NCBI GenBank assembly: GCA_963805975.1
Contig: CAWDVR010000004.1
Location: 384,001 to 448,000 of the forward strand
DNA from: an uncultured Acidobacteriota bacterium
GTDB lineage: Bacteria > Acidobacteriota > Thermoanaerobaculia > Multivoradales > SZUA-115
DNA: 64,000 bases
Reading direction: 5' to 3'
The notes under the pieces were generated by a model. The model ran no database searches, was not told where the DNA came from, and saw only the letters and a program-made list of their open reading frames with translations. How positions within the stretch are numbered: the stretch's first letter is position 1; each line of letters opens with the position of its first letter. Of this stretch, positions 8,477 through 54,552 are shown piece by piece. The position numbers were made by a program, and so were the translations under genes.

Positions 8477-10522
8477 GTGTCTTCGCCGCCACCTTCGTGC
8501 CTGCTGGTCCTCCTGCTACTCGCCGCCTGCGCGCCGGTGGCCTCCCCGCGCACCGCGCCCGACCTCCCGGTGGTCGATCTCCCGCACTTGAGCGAGCGTG
8601 CGCTCCTGCTGCTGGTCGCCGATCGCAAGGAGCACGAGCCGTTCACCGTCGAGAAGGCGCTCGGCGGCCCGCCGGAGCTGCGGCGCGCCCTGGCCGTGGC
8701 GCTGGGGCGCTCCGGTCACCCGGCCGGCCTGCCGGTGCTCCGCGGCCTCGCGGCCGACGAGAACGGCAGCGTGCGGCAGGCCGCGATCTTCGCCCTCGGG
8801 CTGGCCCGCGACCCGGAGGCTGCGGCGCTCCTCCTTGGCCGCGCCGCGGACCCGGAGCGCGCGGAGGCCGCGCTGGCGGTCGAGGCCCTGGGCAAGCTCG
8901 GCGAGCCGCTGGTCGAGGTGCTCCGCGTGCTGACGCCGCTCCCGGAAGGCGAGCGCTGGGCGCGGCTCCTGCCCCACCTCTGGCGCTTCTCGGGCGACAC
9001 CGTCGTGCCGCTGGCGCTCACCGGCCTCGGGCAGGAGGATCGCGAGCTCCGCGCCCGCGCGGCTTTTGCCCTCGCCTCGCGCGCCGCCTCCGCCCCGCGG
9101 CCCGAGGTGGTTCGGGCGCTGCGCGCATTGCTCGCGGACCCGGGCGCTCCCCACCCGAACCTGCAAACCCGTGGCTGGGCGGCGCTGGCGCTGGGCTCGG
9201 TCGGCGGCGAGGAAGACCTCTCGCGCCTCGAGCTCCTGCTGGCGGACCACGAGGCCGGCCTCGTGGCGGACGCCTTGCGTGCCGCCCGGGCGCTGGTTCT
9301 CGCGGGGCGCGCCGCGGCTCCCGCGAGCTGGCGGGAGCGCCTCGCGGGACTGTTCGACGACCCGCGGCCCGCGGTGCGGCTCGTGGCGCTCGAAGCGGCC
9401 GCGGCCTGGCTGCCGGACGCCGCGCTGGGTGAGCGCCTGCGGAATCGTTTCGCGAGCGGCCGAGGCCGGGAGCGGGAGGTGGCGCTCGTGGCCCTCGCCG
9501 AAGGGCAGGACCCGCAGGCCGCCGCGCTCGCCGCGAGTGCCGCGGCGGCACCCGAGCCGTCTCTGCGGCGGGCTGCGGTCGAGGCGGCGGCGCTCCTCGA
9601 CCTCGACGCGCTCCTCGCCACCCTGGCGCGCGACCCAGTGCCCGCGGTGCGGGCTCCGGCTCTCACCGCGCGGCTCGGTCTGTCGACCGGTGACCCGACC
9701 GATCTGCTCGCGGACGGCCTCGGCGACGACGATCCCGGCGTACGCGCCGCGGTGCTCACCTGGCTCGCGAGCCACCCGGTGCTGCCCTACGAGGGGATCT
9801 CGGCTTCGATTCGCCTCGCCCGGCGCGATCCCGATCCCGCGGCCCGGCTGGCCGGGGTCGCGGCGCTGGTTGCCCGCGGCAAGGCACAGCCGCTCGAGCG
9901 CGGCTCGGTGGTGCGCGGTCTCGAGACCCTGGCCGCCGAGCGGGACTATCTCCTGCGCCGCGCGGCGATCTCGGGGCTGGCTGCGCTCGGCCGCCCGGGG
10001 CCGCCGCTGGGGAGCGTCGCGACCGGCCGGGGAGGCGACGTCTACCGCGACATCGTGCAGCGCACGTCCCGCCCGCGGTCGATCGAGGTTCGAACCGCCC
10101 GCGGCACCATCCAGGTGCGCCTCGCCTGCCCGGAGGCGCCGCTCACCTGCCTCTCCTTCCTGCAGCTCATGGCCCAGGGCTTCTACGACGGCCTCGCCTT
10201 CCACCGCGTCGAGCCCGGCCGCTTCGTCGAGACCGGCGACCCGCGCAGCCGTGACGGGTTTGATGATGGGTTGGGCGACGGCTGGGGTGGGCCCGGCTAC
10301 ACGCTGCGCGACGAGCTCAACTCCCTCCCGGCGCGGCGCGGCGCCCTCGCCATGTCCGCCGCCGAGCCCGACACCGCCGGCAGCCGGTTCCTCCTCTTCC
10401 TCGCCGATCAACCCCAGCTCGACGGCAAGCTCACGGTCTTCGGCGAGGTGGTGGGCGGGTGGGAGGTGCTGGACTCGATCGAGCAGGGGGAGCGGATCGA
10501 GGCCGTCCGCGAGGTGCCCTGA
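8477..10522 (+). CDS. Lipoprotein with HEAT repeats and a C-terminal cyclophilin-like domain
   Basis: LLLAAC lipobox; repeated VRxAAxxALG; APLTC..F..L...GFYDGLAFHRV, DTAGS, LDGKLTVFGEVVGGWEVLDSI. Confidence 0.85.
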   Translation: MSSPPPSCLLVLLLLAACAPVASPRTAPDLPVVDLPHLSERALLLLVADRKEHEPFTVEKALGGPPELRRALAVALGRSGHPAGLPVLRGLAADENGSVRQAAIFALGLARDPEAAALLLGRAADPERAEAALAVEALGKLGEPLVEVLRVLTPLPEGERWARLLPHLWRFSGDTVVPLALTGLGQEDRELRARAAFALASRAASAPRPEVVRALRALLADPGAPHPNLQTRGWAALALGSVGGEEDLSRLELLLADHEAGLVADALRAARALVLAGRAAAPASWRERLAGLFDDPRPAVRLVALEAAAAWLPDAALGERLRNRFASGRGREREVALVALAEGQDPQAAALAASAAAAPEPSLRRAAVEAAALLDLDALLATLARDPVPAVRAPALTARLGLSTGDPTDLLADGLGDDDPGVRAAVLTWLASHPVLPYEGISASIRLARRDPDPAARLAGVAALVARGKAQPLERGSVVRGLETLAAERDYLLRRAAISGLAALGRPGPPLGSVATGRGGDVYRDIVQRTSRPRSIEVRTARGTIQVRLACPEAPLTCLSFLQLMAQGFYDGLAFHRVEPGRFVETGDPRSRDGFDDGLGDGWGGPGYTLRDELNSLPARRGALAMSAAEPDTAGSRFLLFLADQPQLDGKLTVFGEVVGGWEVLDSIEQGERIEAVREVP

Positions 10523-10550
10523 CCCGCGCTGACGGCCCCTCCATCGACGC

Positions 10551-11966
10551 TCAGAGATGGCAGCGGATCGTGCCCTGCCGCAGGGCATGACCGCCCGTGT
10601 CGTCGTCGTCGACCCAGAAGAAGGCCTTGAGACCGTTGGCGCCGCACTCGGTCGCCATCGTGATCCCTTCGTTGTTCAGGGTCTGAATCGCCTCGTTCGC
10701 CGGGTCGACGATCTGGCGCTGCCGGAAGGTGACGAGCTTGGGGTTGGCCGGGTCGGCGGCGATCTCGAGGATCACGGCGTGGTTGTCGCAGCCGTTGTCG
10801 CAGTAGGCCCAGAGGAGCCCGGTGTCGCGGTCGAAATCGAGGGCCATCACTTCCGGCAGACCGGAGGGGAAGCTCGCCACCAGCGTATGGGTGCCGTTCT
10901 TGTGGTCCAGCGCGAAGGCGTAGAGCCTGCCGTTGTCTTCGAGACCGACGACGAAGAGGCCCGTTCCGTGGTTGGGGAAGTCCTTCGGTGCGTAGGCTTT
11001 CTCCCCGAAGGTGAGCCCGCGCTCGACCAGGTGCGTGTCCGGCACCCAGGCGATGGCCTCCAGGCCCTTGTTGGCGCCCACTTTGGGGAGGGACGAGGAG
11101 AGGTTCCACTCGTGAGAGGCAGTGAGCAGGTTGCCCTTCCCTTCGGTGTCGAAGCGCAGCACGCCCACCTTCTCGCCCTCGAAGGAAATGTAGACCACCG
11201 GCGAGTCCAGCTCCGCCTTGGTCAGCCCTTCCGTGTCCGGCGTGCCTCCGGTGGGGGTTCGCAGCACGCTGCCGTTCCTCCAGCTTTCGGGGGCCGGGCC
11301 CCAAGTCGCCCCGTTCCACTCGAGGCGATAGAGGTTCGGGGGGTCGTTCTTGACCGCCCAGAGGACGGCGGGCGTCGTGACCTGACCGCTGGGCGCGGTC
11401 TTGGCGGGTTGATAGGCCACGCCGCTCATGTTCTTGCCCATCTGTTTCTGCTCATCGGCCGTCGCCACGTCGGTGCCGCCTGGCCACGCTTCCCCACATC
11501 GGTTGGGCTTTTCCCGGGTGGGCGCGAGCGTCCGGGTCCAGCGGAAGGTCGCGTCGCCGTTGGGACAGCGGCCGTAGGAAGTCTTCGCGGCAGACGTCCA
11601 GGTGTAGGAGTCGACGAGCGCGCCCGCCTTGTCGAAGAGTCGGGCGGAATCGGCCTCGCCCAGCCCGAACTTCATCTTGGACTCTTCGAGCACCAGGAAG
11701 CCGCCCGGCGGCAGAGTGGTTCCGGCGCCGATCTCGTAGGGGCTTCGGTCCTCGCTGTCCCGGAAACTCCATCCGGAGACGTCCACGGCCGCCGCCGTCG
11801 AATTGTGCAGCTCGACCCAGTCGTCAGCCCCCGAGGTCGTCCGGACCTCGTTGAGCCTGACGCCGGAAGTCTGCGCCAGCGACGGCGTCGCCGGCCAACC
11901 CAGCAGTCCAGAGGCCCAGAGAAAAGAGAGAGCTGCCAAGGAGCCACGACGAGCTCTTGCTTCCAT
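10551..11966 (-). CDS. Secreted lamin-tail-domain protein with a C-terminal beta-propeller-like region
   Basis: Signal peptide; VRLNEV..DDWVELHN...VDVSGWSFRD (LTD); DTEGLT, KGLEAIAW, NNEGI motifs. Confidence 0.7.
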   Translation of the reverse strand: MEARARRGSLAALSFLWASGLLGWPATPSLAQTSGVRLNEVRTTSGADDWVELHNSTAAAVDVSGWSFRDSEDRSPYEIGAGTTLPPGGFLVLEESKMKFGLGEADSARLFDKAGALVDSYTWTSAAKTSYGRCPNGDATFRWTRTLAPTREKPNRCGEAWPGGTDVATADEQKQMGKNMSGVAYQPAKTAPSGQVTTPAVLWAVKNDPPNLYRLEWNGATWGPAPESWRNGSVLRTPTGGTPDTEGLTKAELDSPVVYISFEGEKVGVLRFDTEGKGNLLTASHEWNLSSSLPKVGANKGLEAIAWVPDTHLVERGLTFGEKAYAPKDFPNHGTGLFVVGLEDNGRLYAFALDHKNGTHTLVASFPSGLPEVMALDFDRDTGLLWAYCDNGCDNHAVILEIAADPANPKLVTFRQRQIVDPANEAIQTLNNEGITMATECGANGLKAFFWVDDDDTGGHALRQGTIRCHL

Positions 11967-37240: not shown

Positions 37241-37256
37241 TGGCATCTCGATTGCT
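37241..37256 (+). promoter_or_regulatory. Sigma54 (-24/-12) promoter for the TonB receptor
   Basis: TGGCAT-CTCGA-TTGCT, 44 bp before the ATG; AAGGAGG RBS. Confidence 0.75.
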
Positions 37257-42435: not shown

Positions 42436-44714
42436 GCGCCCTCACCGGGCCTTGTCATCCTGAGCGCAGCGAAGGATCTGGTGGCAGGGCCGATGGCTGC
42501 CGCCCGCCCAGATCCTTCGCTGCGCTCAGGATGACAGTTCGTCGTGCCCTCGCCGCGCTCGGCCTCTTTCTCCTCGCCGCCTGCACCCAGGATCGTCCCG
42601 GCGCCTCCTACCGCGCCCCGGCCGGCACGCCCGTCATGCTGATCTCGATCGACACCCTGCGCTCGGACCACCTGCCGGCCTACGGCTACCGCGGCGTCGA
42701 GACGCCGGCGATCGACGCGCTCCGGGCGGAGGGCATCCTCTTCCGCCATGCCTACAGCCACACGCCGCTCACCCTGCCCTCGCACGCCTCCGTCCTGACC
42801 GGCCTGCTGCCGGCGGAGCACGGCGTGCGCGACAACGTGGGCTATGCGCTCGACGCCAAGCGCATCGCCTCGGGCGAGCTGCCCTACCTGCCGCAGATCC
42901 TGAAGACCGCCGGCCATGCCACCGGGGGCGCGGTGTCGGCGTTCGTGCTGCGCGGCAAGACCGGCCTCGAAACGGGCTTCGACTTCTACGAGGACTCGAT
43001 CGAGTTCCAGACCTCGACCGGCCTCGGCGGCCTCCAGCGGGGCGGCGGCGAGACGCTGGCGCTGGCGCGCGACTGGCTGCGGTCGGTGGCAGGCAAGCCG
43101 TTCTTCTTTTTCTTCCATCTCTACGAGCCGCACACGCCCTACCAGCCGCCGGCCCCCTTCGCCGGGCGCTACGCTCACGCCTACGACGGCGAGATCGCCG
43201 CCGCCGACCAGGTGGTGGGCGCGCTGGTGGCCGAGCTGCGGGAGCTGGGCGTCTACGACGAGGCGCTCGTGGTGCTGTTCTCCGACCACGGCGAGGGCCT
43301 GGGCGAGCACGGCGAGGACGAGCACGGCCTGCTGCTCTACCGCGAGTCGTTAGAGGTGCCGCTCCTCGTGAAGCTGCCGGGCGGCGCGCGGGCAGGCGAG
43401 GCCGTGGAGGCCCCGGCCCAGCTCGTGGACGTGGTGCCCACCGTGCTCGGGATGCTCGGCCTGCCGCTGCCGCCGGCGCTCCCCGGCACCTCGCTCCTCG
43501 CCCTCGGCGCGGCCGGTGAGGCACCACGGCGCGTCTACTCGGAGACCTTCTACCCCCGCCTGCACTTCGGCTGGAGCGACCTCGCCTCGCTGATCGACGG
43601 CCGCCACCACTTCATCGAGGGGCCGGACCCGGAGCTCTACGATCTCGCCGCCGACCCGCGTGAGACCAGGAACGTGCTGCGTGAGCAGCGCCGGCCGGCG
43701 GTCGAGATGCGCCAGGCTCTGGCCGCCTTCGACCGCGAGCTCAGGGCCCCGGCCGAGGTGGACGAGGAAACGCGCCAGGCGCTGGCGGCGCTCGGCTATC
43801 TCGGCGGGACCGCGGCGGCCGAGGACGGCCCGCTCGCGGACCCCAAGAGCCGGATCGGCTCGCTGGCGGACTTCAAACTGGGGATCCTCCATCACTCGCG
43901 GCGCGAGTACCGGGAGGCGGTCGCCTCGTTCTCGAAGGTGCTCGCGGTCAACCCGCGCCTGGTCGACGCCTGGGAGTTCCTCGGCCGCACGTACGAAAAG
44001 CTGGACCAGCCCGACCAGGCGCTCGCAGCCTACAGGGAGGCGCTGTCGGTCTCCGGTGGTTCACCGGAGGTGGCGCTCAACGCCGCCTCCCTCTACTTCG
44101 ACCAGGGCCGCCTCGAAGAAGCGGAAGAGCACGCCCGCCTGGCGCTGGTGGCGCACCCTTCGTTCGCCCACGGTCTGCTGTCGCAGGTCGCGCTGGCGCG
44201 CCAGGACCTGGAGGGAGCCGAGCGCGAGGCCCGCGCCGCCATCAGCTCCGGCGAGAGCCGCGTCGGTCCGCTCGTCACGCTCGCCTCGGTGCTCCACGCC
44301 AAGGGCGCTTTCGAGGAGGCGCTCGCCACCGCCGCCCGGGCCGAGGAGGCCTACGGCGAGCGCCGGTCCAAGGACGAGGATCTCCTCCAGGGGCTCGAGC
44401 TGATCCGGGGAAAGGCCCTCGCGGACCTGGGGAAGGCCGCGGAGGCCGAGGCGGCGTTCAGGCGCGAGATCGAGCGCTTTCCAGCCACCTTTCGCGCCTA
44501 CTCCAACCTGGCCCTGCTCTACGCCTTGAGCGGCCGACCGGAGCTCGCCGGGCCGACGCTCAAGCGCATGGTGGAAGCGAGCCCGTCGCCCGCCGCCTAC
44601 GCCGAGGCGGTGAGGACGCTGCGGGTGCTCAAAGACGAAGCCGCCGCGCGCTCGCTTCTCGCGTACGCACGGCGGCTCTATCCGGCAAGTGAGGCGCTCC
44701 GCGCCCTCTCCTGA
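42432..44714 (+). CDS. Sulfatase-fold/TPR lipoprotein (alternative start at 42531)
   Basis: LLAAC lipobox; ISIDTLRSD, TLPSHASVLTG, FSDHGE, ELYDL..DP; C-terminal TPRs. Confidence 0.88.
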   Translation: MSALTGPCHPERSEGSGGRADGCRPPRSFAALRMTVRRALAALGLFLLAACTQDRPGASYRAPAGTPVMLISIDTLRSDHLPAYGYRGVETPAIDALRAEGILFRHAYSHTPLTLPSHASVLTGLLPAEHGVRDNVGYALDAKRIASGELPYLPQILKTAGHATGGAVSAFVLRGKTGLETGFDFYEDSIEFQTSTGLGGLQRGGGETLALARDWLRSVAGKPFFFFFHLYEPHTPYQPPAPFAGRYAHAYDGEIAAADQVVGALVAELRELGVYDEALVVLFSDHGEGLGEHGEDEHGLLLYRESLEVPLLVKLPGGARAGEAVEAPAQLVDVVPTVLGMLGLPLPPALPGTSLLALGAAGEAPRRVYSETFYPRLHFGWSDLASLIDGRHHFIEGPDPELYDLAADPRETRNVLREQRRPAVEMRQALAAFDRELRAPAEVDEETRQALAALGYLGGTAAAEDGPLADPKSRIGSLADFKLGILHHSRREYREAVASFSKVLAVNPRLVDAWEFLGRTYEKLDQPDQALAAYREALSVSGGSPEVALNAASLYFDQGRLEEAEEHARLALVAHPSFAHGLLSQVALARQDLEGAEREARAAISSGESRVGPLVTLASVLHAKGAFEEALATAARAEEAYGERRSKDEDLLQGLELIRGKALADLGKAAEAEAAFRREIERFPATFRAYSNLALLYALSGRPELAGPTLKRMVEASPSPAAYAEAVRTLRVLKDEAAARSLLAYARRLYPASEALRALS
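42453..42536. repeat. REP dimer lying in frame in the 5' end of the CDS
   Basis: Perfect 29-bp inverted arms at 42453-42481 and 42508-42536; 84 bp in total. Confidence 0.9.
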
Positions 44715-44724
44715 GCAGCCCGGC

Positions 44725-45144
44725 CTAGCAGCCGCCGTTCTGCAGCTTGCCGTCGCAGTTGCTGATGTTGCCCTGGAAGCCCTGGAAGTTGGCGAGCGAG
44801 GCCGGCACCCAGCTACCGTCTTTCTTCTGGCAGGTGGCCGTCAGCGTGTGACCCGCCACCTGGGCATCCTTGCAGGTCAGCGAGAAGGAGCCCACCGCGC
44901 CCGTGCAGACCAGGGTGCCGTTGACGTTGCCGATGTCGCCCACGCAGCCGCTCGCGTAGTCGAGCGAGGCGGCGATGCTCGCGCCCTGGAAGGTCTTGCA
45001 GCTCGCCTTGAGCGTGTTGTTGCTCACCGTGGCGCCGGTGCAGGTCTTCTGGTAGGAGCCCGGCGGCGGCGTCTGGGCGGCGGCCGGCTGCGCGAGGACG
45101 AGAGCCAGGGCGAGCAGGGTACAGGCGAACAGAGTCTTTTTCAT
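44725..45144 (-). CDS. Secreted cyanovirin-N-homology (CVNH-like) lectin
   Basis: Signal peptide; two half repeats GSYQKTC...TLKASC...IGNVNGTL and GSFSLTC...TLTATC...ISNCDGKL; GAGGAG RBS. Confidence 0.8.
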   Translation of the reverse strand: MKKTLFACTLLALALVLAQPAAAQTPPPGSYQKTCTGATVSNNTLKASCKTFQGASIAASLDYASGCVGDIGNVNGTLVCTGAVGSFSLTCKDAQVAGHTLTATCQKKDGSWVPASLANFQGFQGNISNCDGKLQNGGC

Positions 45145-45205
45145 GATCGGTCTCCTCGAGACCCTCAACTCGACATTGAATTGATGGGTTCCGAGAACCG
45201 TGAGG

Positions 45206-45221
45206 GGCAAGGCCGGTGCCA
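45206..45221 (-). promoter_or_regulatory. Sigma54 promoter for the CVNH gene
   Basis: Minus strand TGGCAC-CGGCC-TTGCC. Confidence 0.7.
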
Positions 45222-45295
45222 GCGGGCGGCTCGGCGAGTGAGTGGAGAAAGCACGGTAAATCCAGGCTCGAGCGGTCGCGGGGGCGTCGGCGGGA

Positions 45296-45332
45296 ACTGT
45301 CCGCGACTGTCCGGCGAACGTCGGCGGACAGT
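45296..45332. promoter_or_regulatory. Candidate upstream activating sequence
   Basis: ACTGTCCG at 45296 and 45306, inverted copy CGGACAGT at 45325; centred between two sigma54 promoters. Confidence 0.55.
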
Positions 45333-45395
45333 GCTGCTGGGCAGAGCTACCGGGAGCCGCGGGCCTGGCGCGCGCGGCCACGGCCAACGCACCCC

Positions 45396-45411
45396 TGGCA
45401 CTTCACTTGCT
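45396..45411 (+). promoter_or_regulatory. Sigma54 promoter for the DP-EP-like gene
   Basis: TGGCAC-TTCAC-TTGCT, a perfect consensus match. Confidence 0.8.
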
Positions 45412-45465
45412 GAAGCGCAGTCTCGATCCGCCCGCCAAAACCTTTCCATTGGAGGAGGTCGAGCC

Positions 45466-45924
45466 ATGAGCACGGAGCTGAACGCCCGCACCCTTTTCGT
45501 CACCGTCACCTTCGATCCGCAGGCTTCCCCGCACTTCACGTACTCCGGCGACATCAACGAGCAGCAGCAGATCGTGGTCGACGTCAAGCGGGCCTTCATC
45601 CGCTTCTCGCTCGAGACCAAGGGCGGAGGTGTGGAGCGTGCACGCTTCCTCGACGAGCTGCCGTTGGAATGGATGCAAGGGCCTACCCCCGATGGCATCA
45701 GCGTGTGGCTACCCATGCCAGGCAAGCCTCAGACCGAGATCCTGGTCGAGGATCTCAACCCGCTTGCGGTCACCACCGACCTCGTGCAGGAGCTGCCCTT
45801 CCGGATCAACGTGCTCTACGGCTCGAAGATCCACACCTCGAGCGATCCGGCGATCATCAACGTGGACATCCCGCCGATCGACGGCAAGGTGGGCCGCCAC
45901 CACCTGGAGCTGCCGGTCTTCTGA
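45466..45924 (+). CDS. DP-EP (DUF1888)-like small beta protein, putatively self-cleaving
   Basis: GGAGGAGG RBS; LFVTVTFD...PHFTY N-terminal strand and C-terminal SSDPAIIN motif; no signal peptide. Confidence 0.65.
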   Translation: MSTELNARTLFVTVTFDPQASPHFTYSGDINEQQQIVVDVKRAFIRFSLETKGGGVERARFLDELPLEWMQGPTPDGISVWLPMPGKPQTEILVEDLNPLAVTTDLVQELPFRINVLYGSKIHTSSDPAIINVDIPPIDGKVGRHHLELPVF

Positions 45925-45931
45925 GCTGGGG

Positions 45932-48594
45932 CTATGAGCGCGGCTCGCGCGTCAGCTCTGCGAGCTCCGGCGAGCCGCGCAGCGAGTCGAACCACGGCAG
46001 GCTGAACCAGCGCCTGGCGACGCCGTTGCTGCCCAGCGCCCGCCGCGCGGCGACCAGCGCCGAGGCGTCGTCGCCCACCAGGGCGAAGACCAGCGAGGCC
46101 TCGAAGGCGGCCTGGGGGTTGTCCCGCCCGGCGAGCACCGCAGGCTGGATCCGCTCGACCGCCTCCTCGCGGCGCCCGAGGTGGGCGAGGGCCTGGGCGG
46201 CGACCGAGGCGAGGGGCCAGCTTTCACGCGTCGGGTCGCGGGCGGTGAGCTCGAGGATCTGCTGGTAGAGAGTTTCGGCCGCGGGGCGGTCGCCGCCCAG
46301 GAGCGTTGCATCCGCCAGGCTGAGCGCGGCCCACGGGTTCTGCGGCTGGATCTCGAAAGCGAGCCGGGCGTGCTCCCGGGCCTCGCCGTAGCGGCCCAGG
46401 AGCACCTCGGCGATCGAGAGGTTGGACAGCTCGGCGGTGCGCGGGATCTCGGCGACGAGGGCCGAGTAGAGCGTCACGGCACGTTCGGCGTTGCCGGCCA
46501 GGAGCTCGATCTGCGCCAGCAGCGAGCGGCCGGCGAAGGAGCCCGGCAGGCGGGCCAGGAGCTCCTCGAGCGTCTCCCGCGCGGCGTCGCTCTCCCCGAG
46601 CCGGTACTCCATGTCGGCGAGCCGGAAGAGCTGGGGCCAGGAGGGCCGCCGCTCGACCGCCCGGCGCATGGCGGCCAGCGCCGCATCCGTCTCGCCTTCC
46701 CGCTCGAGGAGCCGGGCGCGCCCGGCGAGGAGAGCCGGGTCGCCCGGTTGCAGCCGCTCGAGCTCGCCCAGGGCGGCGCGGGCGGCCGCGAGGTCGTCAC
46801 CGGAGAGGGCCACCTCGAAACCGGCAGCGAGCGGCCGGGGATCCTGCGGCGCGAGCCGCCGGGCGAGCGCGATGCGGTCGCTCGCGGTCTCGAGATCGAA
46901 GGGGTCGCGCCCGAGGCCGAAGCGGTAGCGCAGCAACTGCGCTTCGAGGATCAGGGCTTCGAGGAAGCGGGGCGAGCTGCGCCGGATCGCCGCCAGGCGG
47001 GCCAGGAGGTCGTCCAGGCTGAGGGCCGCTTCGCTGCGGCGGTCGAACGCACGGGTGAGCGCCAGCAGCTCCTGGTAGTCCTCCGGGCGTGCGACCGGAG
47101 GCTCGATGCCGGGGCGCACCCGGCGCTCCGGGTAGGCGTTCTTGAGGTAGCCGCGCACCGCCTCGGCCAGGAGGAACGGCTGGCCGACGGACGCCGTGAA
47201 GCTCCGGGTCCACAGCAGGGCGCCGCGCCCGGCCTCGACGCGCTCGAGCGTCACCTCGCAGGCGAAGGGGTCGCAGCGCAGACGCGTGGCCAAGAGCTCG
47301 TCCGCAGCGAGCGCCCGCGCCAGCTCGGCAGCCGAGCCCCGAACCTCGTCGACCTGCTCCGGAGCCGGTGTCGAAACCCCTTCCAGCGCGAGGAGCGCTG
47401 AGAGCACGGCAGTGCGCAGGGCATAGGCCATGTCCTCGCCCACCGCCGCGTTGCTGTCCGGGCTGAGCTGCGGGGCCGGCACGGCGACGTAGGACGGCGG
47501 CGGCTCGCCGCCGCGCAGCAGCCAGGCGGTGACGAGCACGACGCCGGAAAGGAGAGCCGCGGCTCCCCAGAGCCAAGCCCTCCGGAACCAGATAGGGCGG
47601 CGCTCAGCTTTCCTGAGTGGGGCTTCCCTGAGCGGGGAGGATGGCTCGCCGGCTGGGGCGGGGGGCTCGTTGGCATGCGGGATCGGTGCGATGCGTGCCG
47701 CACGCCGCGGCCCTTCGACGAGCGTCTCGCCTCCCGAGGCCGCGGGCAGGGGCTCGACCGGGGTCGGTCGCCGGTCGCCGACCAGAGAGCCCAGGGTCGC
47801 CAGCACCTCGCCGGCGCTCGCCGGGCGCCGCGCCGGCTCCTTCTCGAGCAGCCGGTCGACCAGTGCCGCCAGGGGTGCCGGCGCCTCCGGCCGCAGGCCG
47901 GCGAGCGGCGGCGGCTGGCGAGTGCAGACGCGCTCCAGGATCTCGAGCGTGCCGCCGCCGCGGAACGGATGGCGGCCCGACACCGTCTCGTAGAGCAGCA
48001 CGCCCAAGGCGAAGAGGTCCGAGCGGTGGTCGACCGGCAGCCCGCGCGCCTGCTCCGGCGACATCGCCCACGGCGTGCCGACCAGGCCGCCGTCGGTCGA
48101 CAGCGCTCCCTCGCCGTCCTCGCCCAGCCGCTTGGCGATCCCGAAGTCGAGCACTTTGACGCCGCCGTCCGCGGTGAGCATCACGTTCGCGGCCTTGAGG
48201 TCGCGGTGCACGATGCCGCGAGCGTGGGCTGCGGCGAGAGCGCTCGCCACCTCCACCCCGAGGCGGAGCGCCTGGTCGATGGCCAGCGGCCCGCCGGCGA
48301 GCACCTGGTCGAGAGTCGAGCCTTCGACCAGCTCGAGCACCAGCGCATCGCCCTGCTGCCAGGTGACGATGTCGTAGATCTGCACGATGGCCGGGTGGTT
48401 GAGGGCCGCCACCGCCCTCGCCTCGTGGCGGAAGCGCGCGGAGGTGGCCGCGCCGGCATCGGCGCGGAGCAGCTTGATGGCGACCCGCCGCCCCAGCCGC
48501 TCGTCCCAGGCGGTGTAGACCTCGCCCATGCCGCCGCTGCCGAGCCGCGCCTCGAGGCGGTAGGGACCGATCCTCTCCGGCCGGCCGAGGAGCG

Positions 48595-48598
<4 letters not shown>
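45932..48598 (-). CDS. Membrane Ser/Thr protein kinase with extracytoplasmic TPRs
   Basis: LGSGGMGEV, VAIK, HRDLKAAN, DFG, GTPWAMSPEQ; TM segment WLWGAAALLSGVVLVTAWLL; TPRs; start overlaps the upstream stop. Confidence 0.92.
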
Positions 48599-50208
<1,610 letters not shown>

Positions 50209-50252
50209 CCCCGAAGTGTACCAGCGGCGCGGTTGCGCGCGCCCAGATGCTC

Positions 50253-50999
50253 CTACTGGCCGCTGCCGTCCTGCCCCTTCTTCTTGGGCGCCTTGGCGTA
50301 CCAGCGGCCGTCGATCTTGACCAGCTCCACGGTCTCGTCGCCGGCCTTCGCCGTGGCGTGGTCGCCCTGGACCTTGAGGTCCGTGATCTTGCCGCCGTCC
50401 GCGAGCGGGCCCGACTTGGAGACGCTCTTCTCGTCGCCGAGCTCGCGGAACAGGGCCCACAGGTCCGAGATCAGGCCAATGTCGTCCACACCGGCCATCA
50501 GCTTCGTGAGGGCCGCGGGGTCCTCGGCGCCGCCGGCGAGCGGCGAGTCGTCCTTCATCTTCTCCGTCAGGCCGTGCTTGTCGAGGATCTTGTCGTAGCG
50601 CTGCTGGAGGTCGGCGGCCTTTTTCGCTATCTCCTGCTTGCCCTTCTCGAGCTTGGCCTTGTCCTCCGCGGAGGCCTCCTCGCCGGACATGGCCTCGCCC
50701 ATGCCTTCCGCCATCGCGGCGCCCATGTCACCGCCCATGCCCATGAAACCGATCATCATGCCGGCGCCGAGCACCAGGCCGAGGGCCATCTCGGCACGGT
50801 CCTCGGGCGCCAGGCAGGCGGCGATCTCGGGCACGTCGCCTTTCTCGGCGGCCTTTTCGATGCGGGCGACCAGGGCTTCCGGGCTCTCCGCTCCCGCCTG
50901 GACCTTGGCCGCCGCGGTGAGCGGCGAGCCGGCGAGGACGAGGCACAGGCAGAGCGCCAGGGCAGAGGTGAAGCGGGGACTGCGGCGCAACAGAGTCAT
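50253..50999 (-). CDS. Secreted hypothetical protein
   Basis: AAGGGAG RBS; signal peptide; ends in VELVKIDGRWY. Confidence 0.7.
   Translation of the reverse strand: MTLLRRSPRFTSALALCLCLVLAGSPLTAAAKVQAGAESPEALVARIEKAAEKGDVPEIAACLAPEDRAEMALGLVLGAGMMIGFMGMGGDMGAAMAEGMGEAMSGEEASAEDKAKLEKGKQEIAKKAADLQQRYDKILDKHGLTEKMKDDSPLAGGAEDPAALTKLMAGVDDIGLISDLWALFRELGDEKSVSKSGPLADGGKITDLKVQGDHATAKAGDETVELVKIDGRWYAKAPKKKGQDGSGQ

Positions 51000-52104: not shown

Positions 52105-54552
<2,448 letters not shown>

Follow-up and report, generated by a model that had tools for sequence, protein, structure and literature searches.

A diverged DP-EP-fold protein as predicted sigma54-controlled partner of a transmembrane kinase-TPR receptor

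What is a small protein of the DP-EP type doing beside a membrane receptor kinase? Nine structures of the DP-EP protein SO1698 from Shewanella oneidensis have been deposited, and the literature searched gives no cellular role for it. Bacterial membrane receptors of the kinase-TPR and STAND-TPR kinds likewise have, to our knowledge, few known ligands. The 64,000-nucleotide stretch of DNA analyzed here (the window) raises both problems at one locus, where the gene of a DP-EP-like protein, P0001, is convergent with a receptor kinase gene, with 7 nt between them. An earlier note on this DNA had proposed that P0001 cleaves itself at an Asp-Pro bond close to its C-terminus and thereby releases a peptide that could be a ligand for the TPR domain of the kinase. 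The features on which the argument draws are the following.

44725..45144, minus strand: CVNH lectin of 139 aa, a cyanovirin-N homologue of secreted type (PF08881, E 1.4e-10) and predicted co-target
45207..45221, minus strand: second perfect sigma54 match, before the CVNH gene
45285..45332, no strand assigned: candidate enhancer with five copies of a TGTC(C/G)G-type repeat about 10 nt apart, an inverted pair included, between the divergent promoters
45396..45410, plus strand: TGGCAC-N5-TTGC, a perfect fit to the sigma54 (-24/-12) consensus, 70 nt ahead of the DP-EP start
45451..45458, plus strand: ribosome-binding site GGAGGAGG, 7 nt before the P0001 ATG
45466..45924, plus strand: DP-EP-like (SO1698-fold) protein P0001, 152 aa, without signal peptide (translation, model, profile)
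45838..45861, plus strand: conserved S-x-D-P-x-I-I-N motif (S125-N132), residues 129-132 being the last core strand
45844-45849, plus strand: candidate scissile bond D127-P128 (from motif conservation)
45862..45921, plus strand: variable low-confidence tail V133-F152 with a non-polar LPVF end (model, alignment)
45932..48598, minus strand: 'type A' receptor, 888 aa, a Ser/Thr kinase followed by a TM helix, an alpha/beta domain and a TPR superhelix (model, profiles)
about 47516-47572, minus strand: transmembrane helix of the type A kinase
48595..50208, minus strand: sigma54 activator with a degenerate FHA-like N-terminal domain, 537 aa, whose stop overlaps the kinase start (ATGA)

The gene of P0001 starts at 45466. 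The ORF finder places the protein inside a 411-aa ORF starting at 44689, which we rejected as the gene because GC3 drops to 0.58 in its upstream part from 0.89 in the P0001 gene, its extra part runs across the CVNH gene on the other strand, and relatives share the 45466 start. Two relatives carry the source label Thermoanaerobaculia and one carries Acidobacteriota. Sequence, GC3 and relatives thus bore out the ORF, the Asp-Pro motif, the strong ribosome-binding site and the hidden start that the earlier note had reported. Its claim that a signal peptide is missing also agreed with a hydropathy test, albeit a crude one and not SignalP: P0001 has no hydrophobic N-terminal stretch with a mean of 2.0 over 12 residues, a value reached near the start by only two of the 88 family members. 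The protein ends in TSSDPAIINVDIPPIDGKVGRHHLELPVF (translation of 45466-45924, plus strand).

The structural model of P0001, built from 38 sequences (pLDDT 88), is an all-beta sandwich for which the top seven Foldseek rows are all SO1698 entries (best E 1.8e-6). Comparison of a predicted structure with SO1698, as suggested in the earlier note, gave SO1698 as the best fold match also in a wide structure search (Z 12.1, rmsd 2.5, 113 residues aligned), followed by MakD (Z 10.9, rmsd 2.3, 107 aligned) and then PixA (Z 10.0, rmsd 3.5, 118 aligned). The profile of the 88-sequence family matches SO1698 at E 9.6e-5, PF08985 is matched by 44 of the 88 relatives at E up to 0.1, and the profile-profile comparison aligned the family end to end with 34 gammaproteobacterial and Gemmatimonadaceae DP-EP sequences (probability 98.4, E 3.7e-14). 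Single-sequence searches with P0001 found no Pfam, NCBIfam or PDB sequence match, and P0001 did not reach the Pfam gathering cut-off of PF08985. Another profile of the family and P0033 as query both missed SO1698, and PF08985 gave three weak matches, none above the cut-off, over 301 genomes of the phylum. The Atlas offered a pointer to DP-EP clusters, coming from a minority of cluster members, and PF20301 (pNTSase1) in 11-16% of the members of two clusters, a term absent from the literature searched. Judged by the predicted fold and the family profiles, the likeness to DP-EP claimed earlier is genuine: P0001 is a diverged DP-EP homologue outside the curated Pfam model, and no member by threshold.

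According to the family alignment, conservation of the Asp-Pro motif exceeds chance, with D in 83, P in 87, S in 76 and N132 in 78 of the 88 sequences; members matching the DP-EP model have S in 33 and D and P each in 34 of 34. The second Asp-Pro of P0001, D17-P18, was discarded as a cleavage site, being kept in just 20 of 88. Glu-Pro replaces Asp-Pro in two partners, and the partners L079:6303-6677 and L088:737-1114, which end in STAQYPVMSCV, have lost the Asp-Pro yet keep perfect sigma54 matches.

Whether the motif is cleaved can be approached through SO1698, for which the PDB titles name the mutants Y26F, D37A, K98A, S114A, P115A, D116A, P117A and Q118A. Chain lengths are 111-114 residues for the wild type, Y26F, K98A, P115A and Q118A and 119-122 residues for D37A, S114A, D116A and P117A, from which we infer that the latter four were uncut in the crystals. 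In the alignment, P0001 keeps Y26, S114, D116 and P117 of SO1698. Asp37 corresponds to Gln35 in a loop whose alignment is uncertain (Asp in 2/88 of the family), and Lys98 corresponds to Glu109 (Lys in 2/88). Asp37 and Lys98 do not define the DP-EP family because each is kept in only 6 of the 34 model-matching members, but both are absent from P0001, and the cleavage of SO1698 is therefore not transferable with confidence. We put the predicted Asp-Pro cleavage of P0001 at somewhat less than an even chance. The Asp-Pro may also be partly structural, because PixA proteins have the end W-D-P-x-I-x-V at the corresponding position, which in the structures 4q52 and 4pib is part of a single deposited chain.

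In the scheme of the earlier note, cleavage would free PAIINVDIPPIDGKVGRHHLELPVF, and the free peptide would bind the TPR domain, or else the activated Asp would cross-link to targets. The conserved D-P, a TPR superhelix suited to extended peptides, and first 5-9 tail residues that are the most conserved part of the family all speak for this scheme. The 25 residues from P128 to the C-terminus of P0001 are, however, a variable length: tails counted from the Pro span 8-63 residues (median 14; 45 of 88 at most 14), and nothing is conserved beyond about P-x-I-I-N-x-x-P. The nearest relative, 84% identical, keeps 120 of 137 core residues versus 8 of 15 tail residues, and the paralogue in the same genome stops at DPTIINREPPP. 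The conserved part of the tail (129-132) belongs to the core sandwich in the model, and residues 141-146 are disordered (pLDDT under 50). Osipiuk's 2012 study of SO1698 reportedly found the cut strand retained in the sandwich, a Lys-Asp link and an oligomer. As far as the available part of PMC11655445 goes, low-pH cleavage is cited there and SO1698 used as a linker freed its cargo worse than an intein did; the available part of PMC10880436 describes a different Asp-Pro nick, after which the strand can remain attached. Lys-Asp cross-linking in P0001 was rejected for want of a Lys98 equivalent, and cross-linking of the activated Asp to targets found no support on the same grounds. Alignment and model together make a conserved free 25-mer unlikely as a signal, and we regard the scheme as a whole as very improbable.

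Long tails tend to end in non-polar residues (VAA, AVAV, LVS, LPVF; 45907-45921 in the window, and relatives), resembling protease degradation tags. Of the long tails, 35 of 50 end in this way; the figure is 5 of 75 for short tails and 328 of 2065 for the proteins of the genome, by a rule chosen after inspecting the data and with related sequences included in the counts.

The kinase beside P0001 has intact VAIK, HRD and DFG motifs. Its helix is preceded by basic residues on the kinase side and has a hydropathy of at least 1.8 in 40 of 45 relatives and 1.48-1.71 in the others. The part beyond the helix was modelled with pLDDT 94.5 as the alpha/beta domain followed by an OGT-like TPR superhelix; it contains an invariant Cys pair, and its TPR helices keep polar residues (N360 in 44/44, Q436, H440, D397), which we count in favour of P0001 as its partner. 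Sequence and model predict that the TPR domain faces outward. P0001 and the TPR domain are accordingly placed in different compartments by the predictions, which counts against P0001 as a ligand: with the TPR domain behind a TM helix and no signal peptide on P0001, it could act as a ligand only after lysis or by way of an export route not yet described. The window encodes a second kinase-TM-TPR protein of another type (52105-54552), for which the strict convergent-ORF rule found no Asp-Pro partner.

The coupling of the two genes extends well beyond the window. Genomes with a match to the DP-EP family profile number 43 of 251 in the order and 9 of 301 in the class. Among 59 distinct loci (window included), 56 contain the kinase or its TPR domain, 51 the type A domain and 37 an FHA-like activator; L074, L091 and L098 have neither kinase nor TPR domain, and in the last two the contig ends there. 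Within the order, 86 of the 251 genomes have the type A domain. A reverse test took 40 type A kinases with no partner found earlier (20 top-ranked and 20 lower, among the 150 matches listed), and by the strict rule a convergent ORF ending D-P-x-hydrophobic adjoined 35 of them, against a background of 10 in 1198 random ORFs and 1 in 34 kinases of the window's genome. Three of the five misses had a weaker profile match and two had none. The 34 kinases of this genome include two of type A, both near its two DP-EP genes. Each receptor copy has one diverged partner (median identity 24% versus 43%), which fits cognate pairs. The second pair of the genome (G000:C2:342257-347140, L024) has an alpha/beta-hydrolase-like gene in between, and is without activator and sigma54 match.

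A motif scan of genome contigs gave 17 loci, seven of which were set aside as they had no match to the DP-EP profile. The ten DP-EP genes comprised five from Shewanella and one from Permianibacter that follow a wHTH-nSTAND1-TM-TPR gene (domains scanned in three, helix seen in all six), and four from Gemmatimonadaceae, where the preceding gene is a complete kinase-TM-TPR gene in two cases and, in the other two, a TPR gene truncated by the end of the contig. Within the Shewanella order, PF08985 had matches in 26 of 301 genomes; two were already known, and the other 24 loci all have a wHTH-nSTAND1-TM-TPR receptor directly upstream of the DP-EP gene (one repeats a seed contig). The post-helix domain of the gammaproteobacterial receptors scored 66-113 bits against those of the Gemmatimonadaceae and other kinases that precede DP-EP genes. 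This outer domain (type B) has no sequence similarity to that of type A (10 bits at most). Two families of receptor would therefore have to recognize a single type of ligand, a point against P0001 as ligand. DP-EP-family genes hence adjoin membrane receptor genes in three bacterial phyla. Across phyla, the DP-EP partner tracks the outer domain and not the inner one, which is a kinase at some type B loci and wHTH-STAND at others. The loci are kin, and the counts overstate independence and should be read as patterns, not statistics. With 56 of 59 loci, 35 of 40 in the reverse test and 24 of 24 gammaproteobacterial loci, the tie between P0001 and the neighbouring kinase asserted in the earlier note holds up well. 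We found no description of this pairing in the literature searched, mainly the main text of papers open without subscription; the available portions of PMC4756867, PMC2875238 and PMC12282931 contain nothing relevant to it. In the available part of PMC2262068, S. oneidensis so1699, whose number adjoins SO1698, is called a transcriptional regulator.

The domain comparison also bears on the proposal that DP-EP works inside the cytoplasm as a regulator in a feedback loop or as a substrate, its binding site being on the kinase, on the activator or on the receptor's inner face, with the long tails as degradation tags that a nick might remove. DP-EP and the kinase domain would share one compartment, the genes are coupled or overlapping in some lineages, and the non-polar tail ends counted above, by a post-hoc rule and with related sequences included, would suit such tags. 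The inner domains are, however, wholly different between lineages, whereas the outer type B domain is common to them, and we consider this proposal improbable.

Several partners depart from the usual layout. Gammaproteobacterial DP-EP paralogues with signal-peptide-like N-termini lie beside the usual gene (L108:5213-5977, L112:4304-4801, L172, L174), and longer partners of about 255-400 aa carry the same end motif (L120, L121, L123, L124, L131, L132, L148, L149), possibly as tandem or fused domains. Two or three partners stand in tandem at some loci (L055, L075, L081), and at L105:1918-2208 a small ORF with an ELEARIAP motif and no Pfam or NCBIfam match lies between the DP-EP and TPR genes.

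Sigma54 promoters are defined by GG at -24 and GC at -12. The only two perfect matches in the window flank the gap at 45146-45465 and point at the DP-EP and lectin genes; with one mismatch allowed, there are five matches, no more than chance (mean 3.2). A match of at least 8 of 10 consensus bases is found in 33 of 63 partner upstream regions (one region was too short for scoring) versus 84 of 2209 genes of the genome, and in 1 of 63 on the reverse strand. These sites occur in 24 of 40 regions with an activator nearby and 9 of 23 without one. The other 30 of the 63, including that of the genome's second pair, have no good match and count against a circuit of this kind. At the 40 reverse-test loci, a 9/10 site lies on the partner strand in 25 and on the opposite strand in 8. 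TGTC(C/G)G repeats at 10-nt spacing lie upstream in 22 of 32 promoters versus 18% of shuffles, the motif having been drawn from the promoter set on which it was scored. Five repeats are present at 2 of 203 sigma54-like sites of the genome, the DP-EP and lectin sites alone. A strong sigma54 site with at least three repeats precedes 34 genes, of which 21 pass the Asp-Pro rule, two are partners missed by the rule and 11 are others, with Pfam matches in four (thaumatin, glycoside-hydrolase-like domain, tyrosine phosphatase, Vps62). Predicted targets other than DP-EP differ by locus, which we count in favour of DP-EP as the receptor's own partner. The genome has rpoN, and no sigma70-type promoter was found in 44600-50700. 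The predicted promoter of the DP-EP gene combines the -24/-12 consensus with upstream repeats, rpoN and an activator. A one-mismatch sigma54-like site at 37241-37255 lies before TonB-dependent receptor and sulfatase-TPR genes, and such genes flank the module in the relative G237 (L015) as well.

The activator has intact Walker A and B motifs. Its GAFTGA loop reads GAWSGA (1 of 37 relatives), and the protein may be weak owing to this change; AFTG is present in 19 of the 37, and the loop could not be parsed in seven. The FHA region is degenerate, keeping the Arg and Ser but not the His and Asn of the G-R, S-x-x-H and N-G motifs. It was recognized by hhalign with probability 77.6 (E 1.9e-5) and through 3gqs at E 0.041, and Pfam FHA had no match in the 37 family members. 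A Thr in the N-terminal extension, invariant in the alignment, is a candidate phosphorylation site. On these sequence features, we consider the regulatory arm of sigma54 promoter, repeats and activator to be probably real. The signalling loop of the earlier note is plausible in that the DP-EP gene carries a sigma54 promoter beside a sigma54 activator, but the 25-mer as its signal is unsupported.

DP-EP could also be imagined as the constant output of the receptor and nothing else. It would then be an induced cytoplasmic protein of oligomer or inclusion type, comparable to PixA or MakC/D, that makes no contact with the receptor and serves to protect the cell or to act on another organism, its Asp-Pro being structural or a maturation nick. 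P0001, PixA and MakD have a common fold, the W-D-P end of PixA stays in one chain, the co-targets (CVNH in the window, and at other loci thaumatin and a glycoside-hydrolase-like domain) resemble proteins of interaction or defence, and a cytoplasmic location demands no extra step. Gene order alone fits a ligand and a regulated output alike, which counts against our preferred reading. If the output were generic, however, there would be no need for every receptor copy to have its own fast-diverging DP-EP copy next to it, and the pair survives without activator and promoter at L024. We hold the output explanation to be possible but doubtful.

Instead, we favour a cognate partner of the TPR domain because DP-EP is constant beside the receptors, is present as one diverged copy for each, and tracks the outer domain in the Shewanella, Gemmatimonadaceae and related loci. 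P0001 would then be the induced partner, and likely the ligand, of the receptor's outer TPR domain, acting as a folded and possibly nicked protein; we assign this reading a probability of roughly 0.45, and direct binding of P0001 to the receptor, taken by itself, is predicted at close to but below even odds. Observed here are the gene and its pairing, the fold and motif of the protein, the topology pattern around the helix, and the promoter and repeat matches; beyond these, we infer four steps. The DP-EP protein would get out of the cell, for which lysis of neighbouring kin is the simplest route. The TPR groove would read the conserved S-x-D-P-x-I-I-N end, either intact or after the Asp-Pro nick. 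The kinase would phosphorylate or dock the FHA-like sigma54 activator, which would bind the TGTC(C/G)G repeats and switch on DP-EP, as positive feedback, together with the divergent lectin gene.

A bolder generalization, which we think unlikely to hold in full, is that DP-EP proteins are danger signals: polymorphic cytoplasmic ligands, each with a dedicated single-pass TPR receptor (a kinase or a STAND-transcription factor) that reads it after kin-cell bursting. Self-cleavage at Asp-Pro would arm or time the signal, and sigma54 feedback would amplify a defence response of lectin type. Through the receptor context, the DP-EP family gains a testable job and a model host, and the whole predicted circuit of receptor kinase, activator, enhancer, two promoters and two targets spans 5.5 kb of the window.

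Among known systems, SO1698 (PF08985, formerly DUF1888; PDB 3N55, 3NJF-3NJN), the top fold match, is the closest to P0001. Both have a cupredoxin-like beta-sandwich with Y26, S114, D116, P117 and the IIN sequence kept, and close Shewanella homologues of SO1698 also lie beside a TM-TPR receptor gene, which they follow. The two proteins differ in that identity is only 13-17%, P0001 has no Pfam match and a longer tail, and D37, K98, P115 and Q118 of SO1698 are Q35, E109, S126 and A129 in P0001. Unlike SO1698, P0001 has a type A-domain kinase as partner, encoded convergently, and a sigma54 promoter of its own.

The PixA/AidA inclusion-body proteins (PF12306; 4LZK, 4PIB, 4Q52) and Vibrio MakC/MakD have a sandwich as in P0001, and PixA likewise ends in D-P and then the final strand. 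We know of no cleavage in either group. The available text of PMC11484084 leaves functions undescribed, and that of PMC9038741 has DP-EP and PixA in Pfam clan CL0026. They differ from P0001 by an identity of 5-13% and, in PixA, by W-D-P in place of S-x-D-P; PF12306 had no match in the window's genome, and the P0001 motif is S-S-D-P, not W-D-P. At G322:C35:8446-9252 (L159), PixA-family matches, in pieces, come directly after a type A kinase (10069-11607).

FHA-domain sigma54 activators pair with Ser/Thr kinases in Myxococcus, and FHA switches of the GarA/OdhI type are known. The window resembles these systems in having a kinase and an FHA-like activator in one operon, in the kept FHA Arg and Ser and in a conserved Thr of the N-terminal extension. 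It departs from them in the degenerate FHA domain, the outer TPR superhelix of the receptor and the DP-EP gene as target. RRNPP proteins are TPR receptors for peptide pheromones. As in the window, the TPR sensor adjoins a small gene likely under its control in a feedback layout, whereas the receptor of the window spans the membrane and is paired with a folded domain that lacks a signal peptide.
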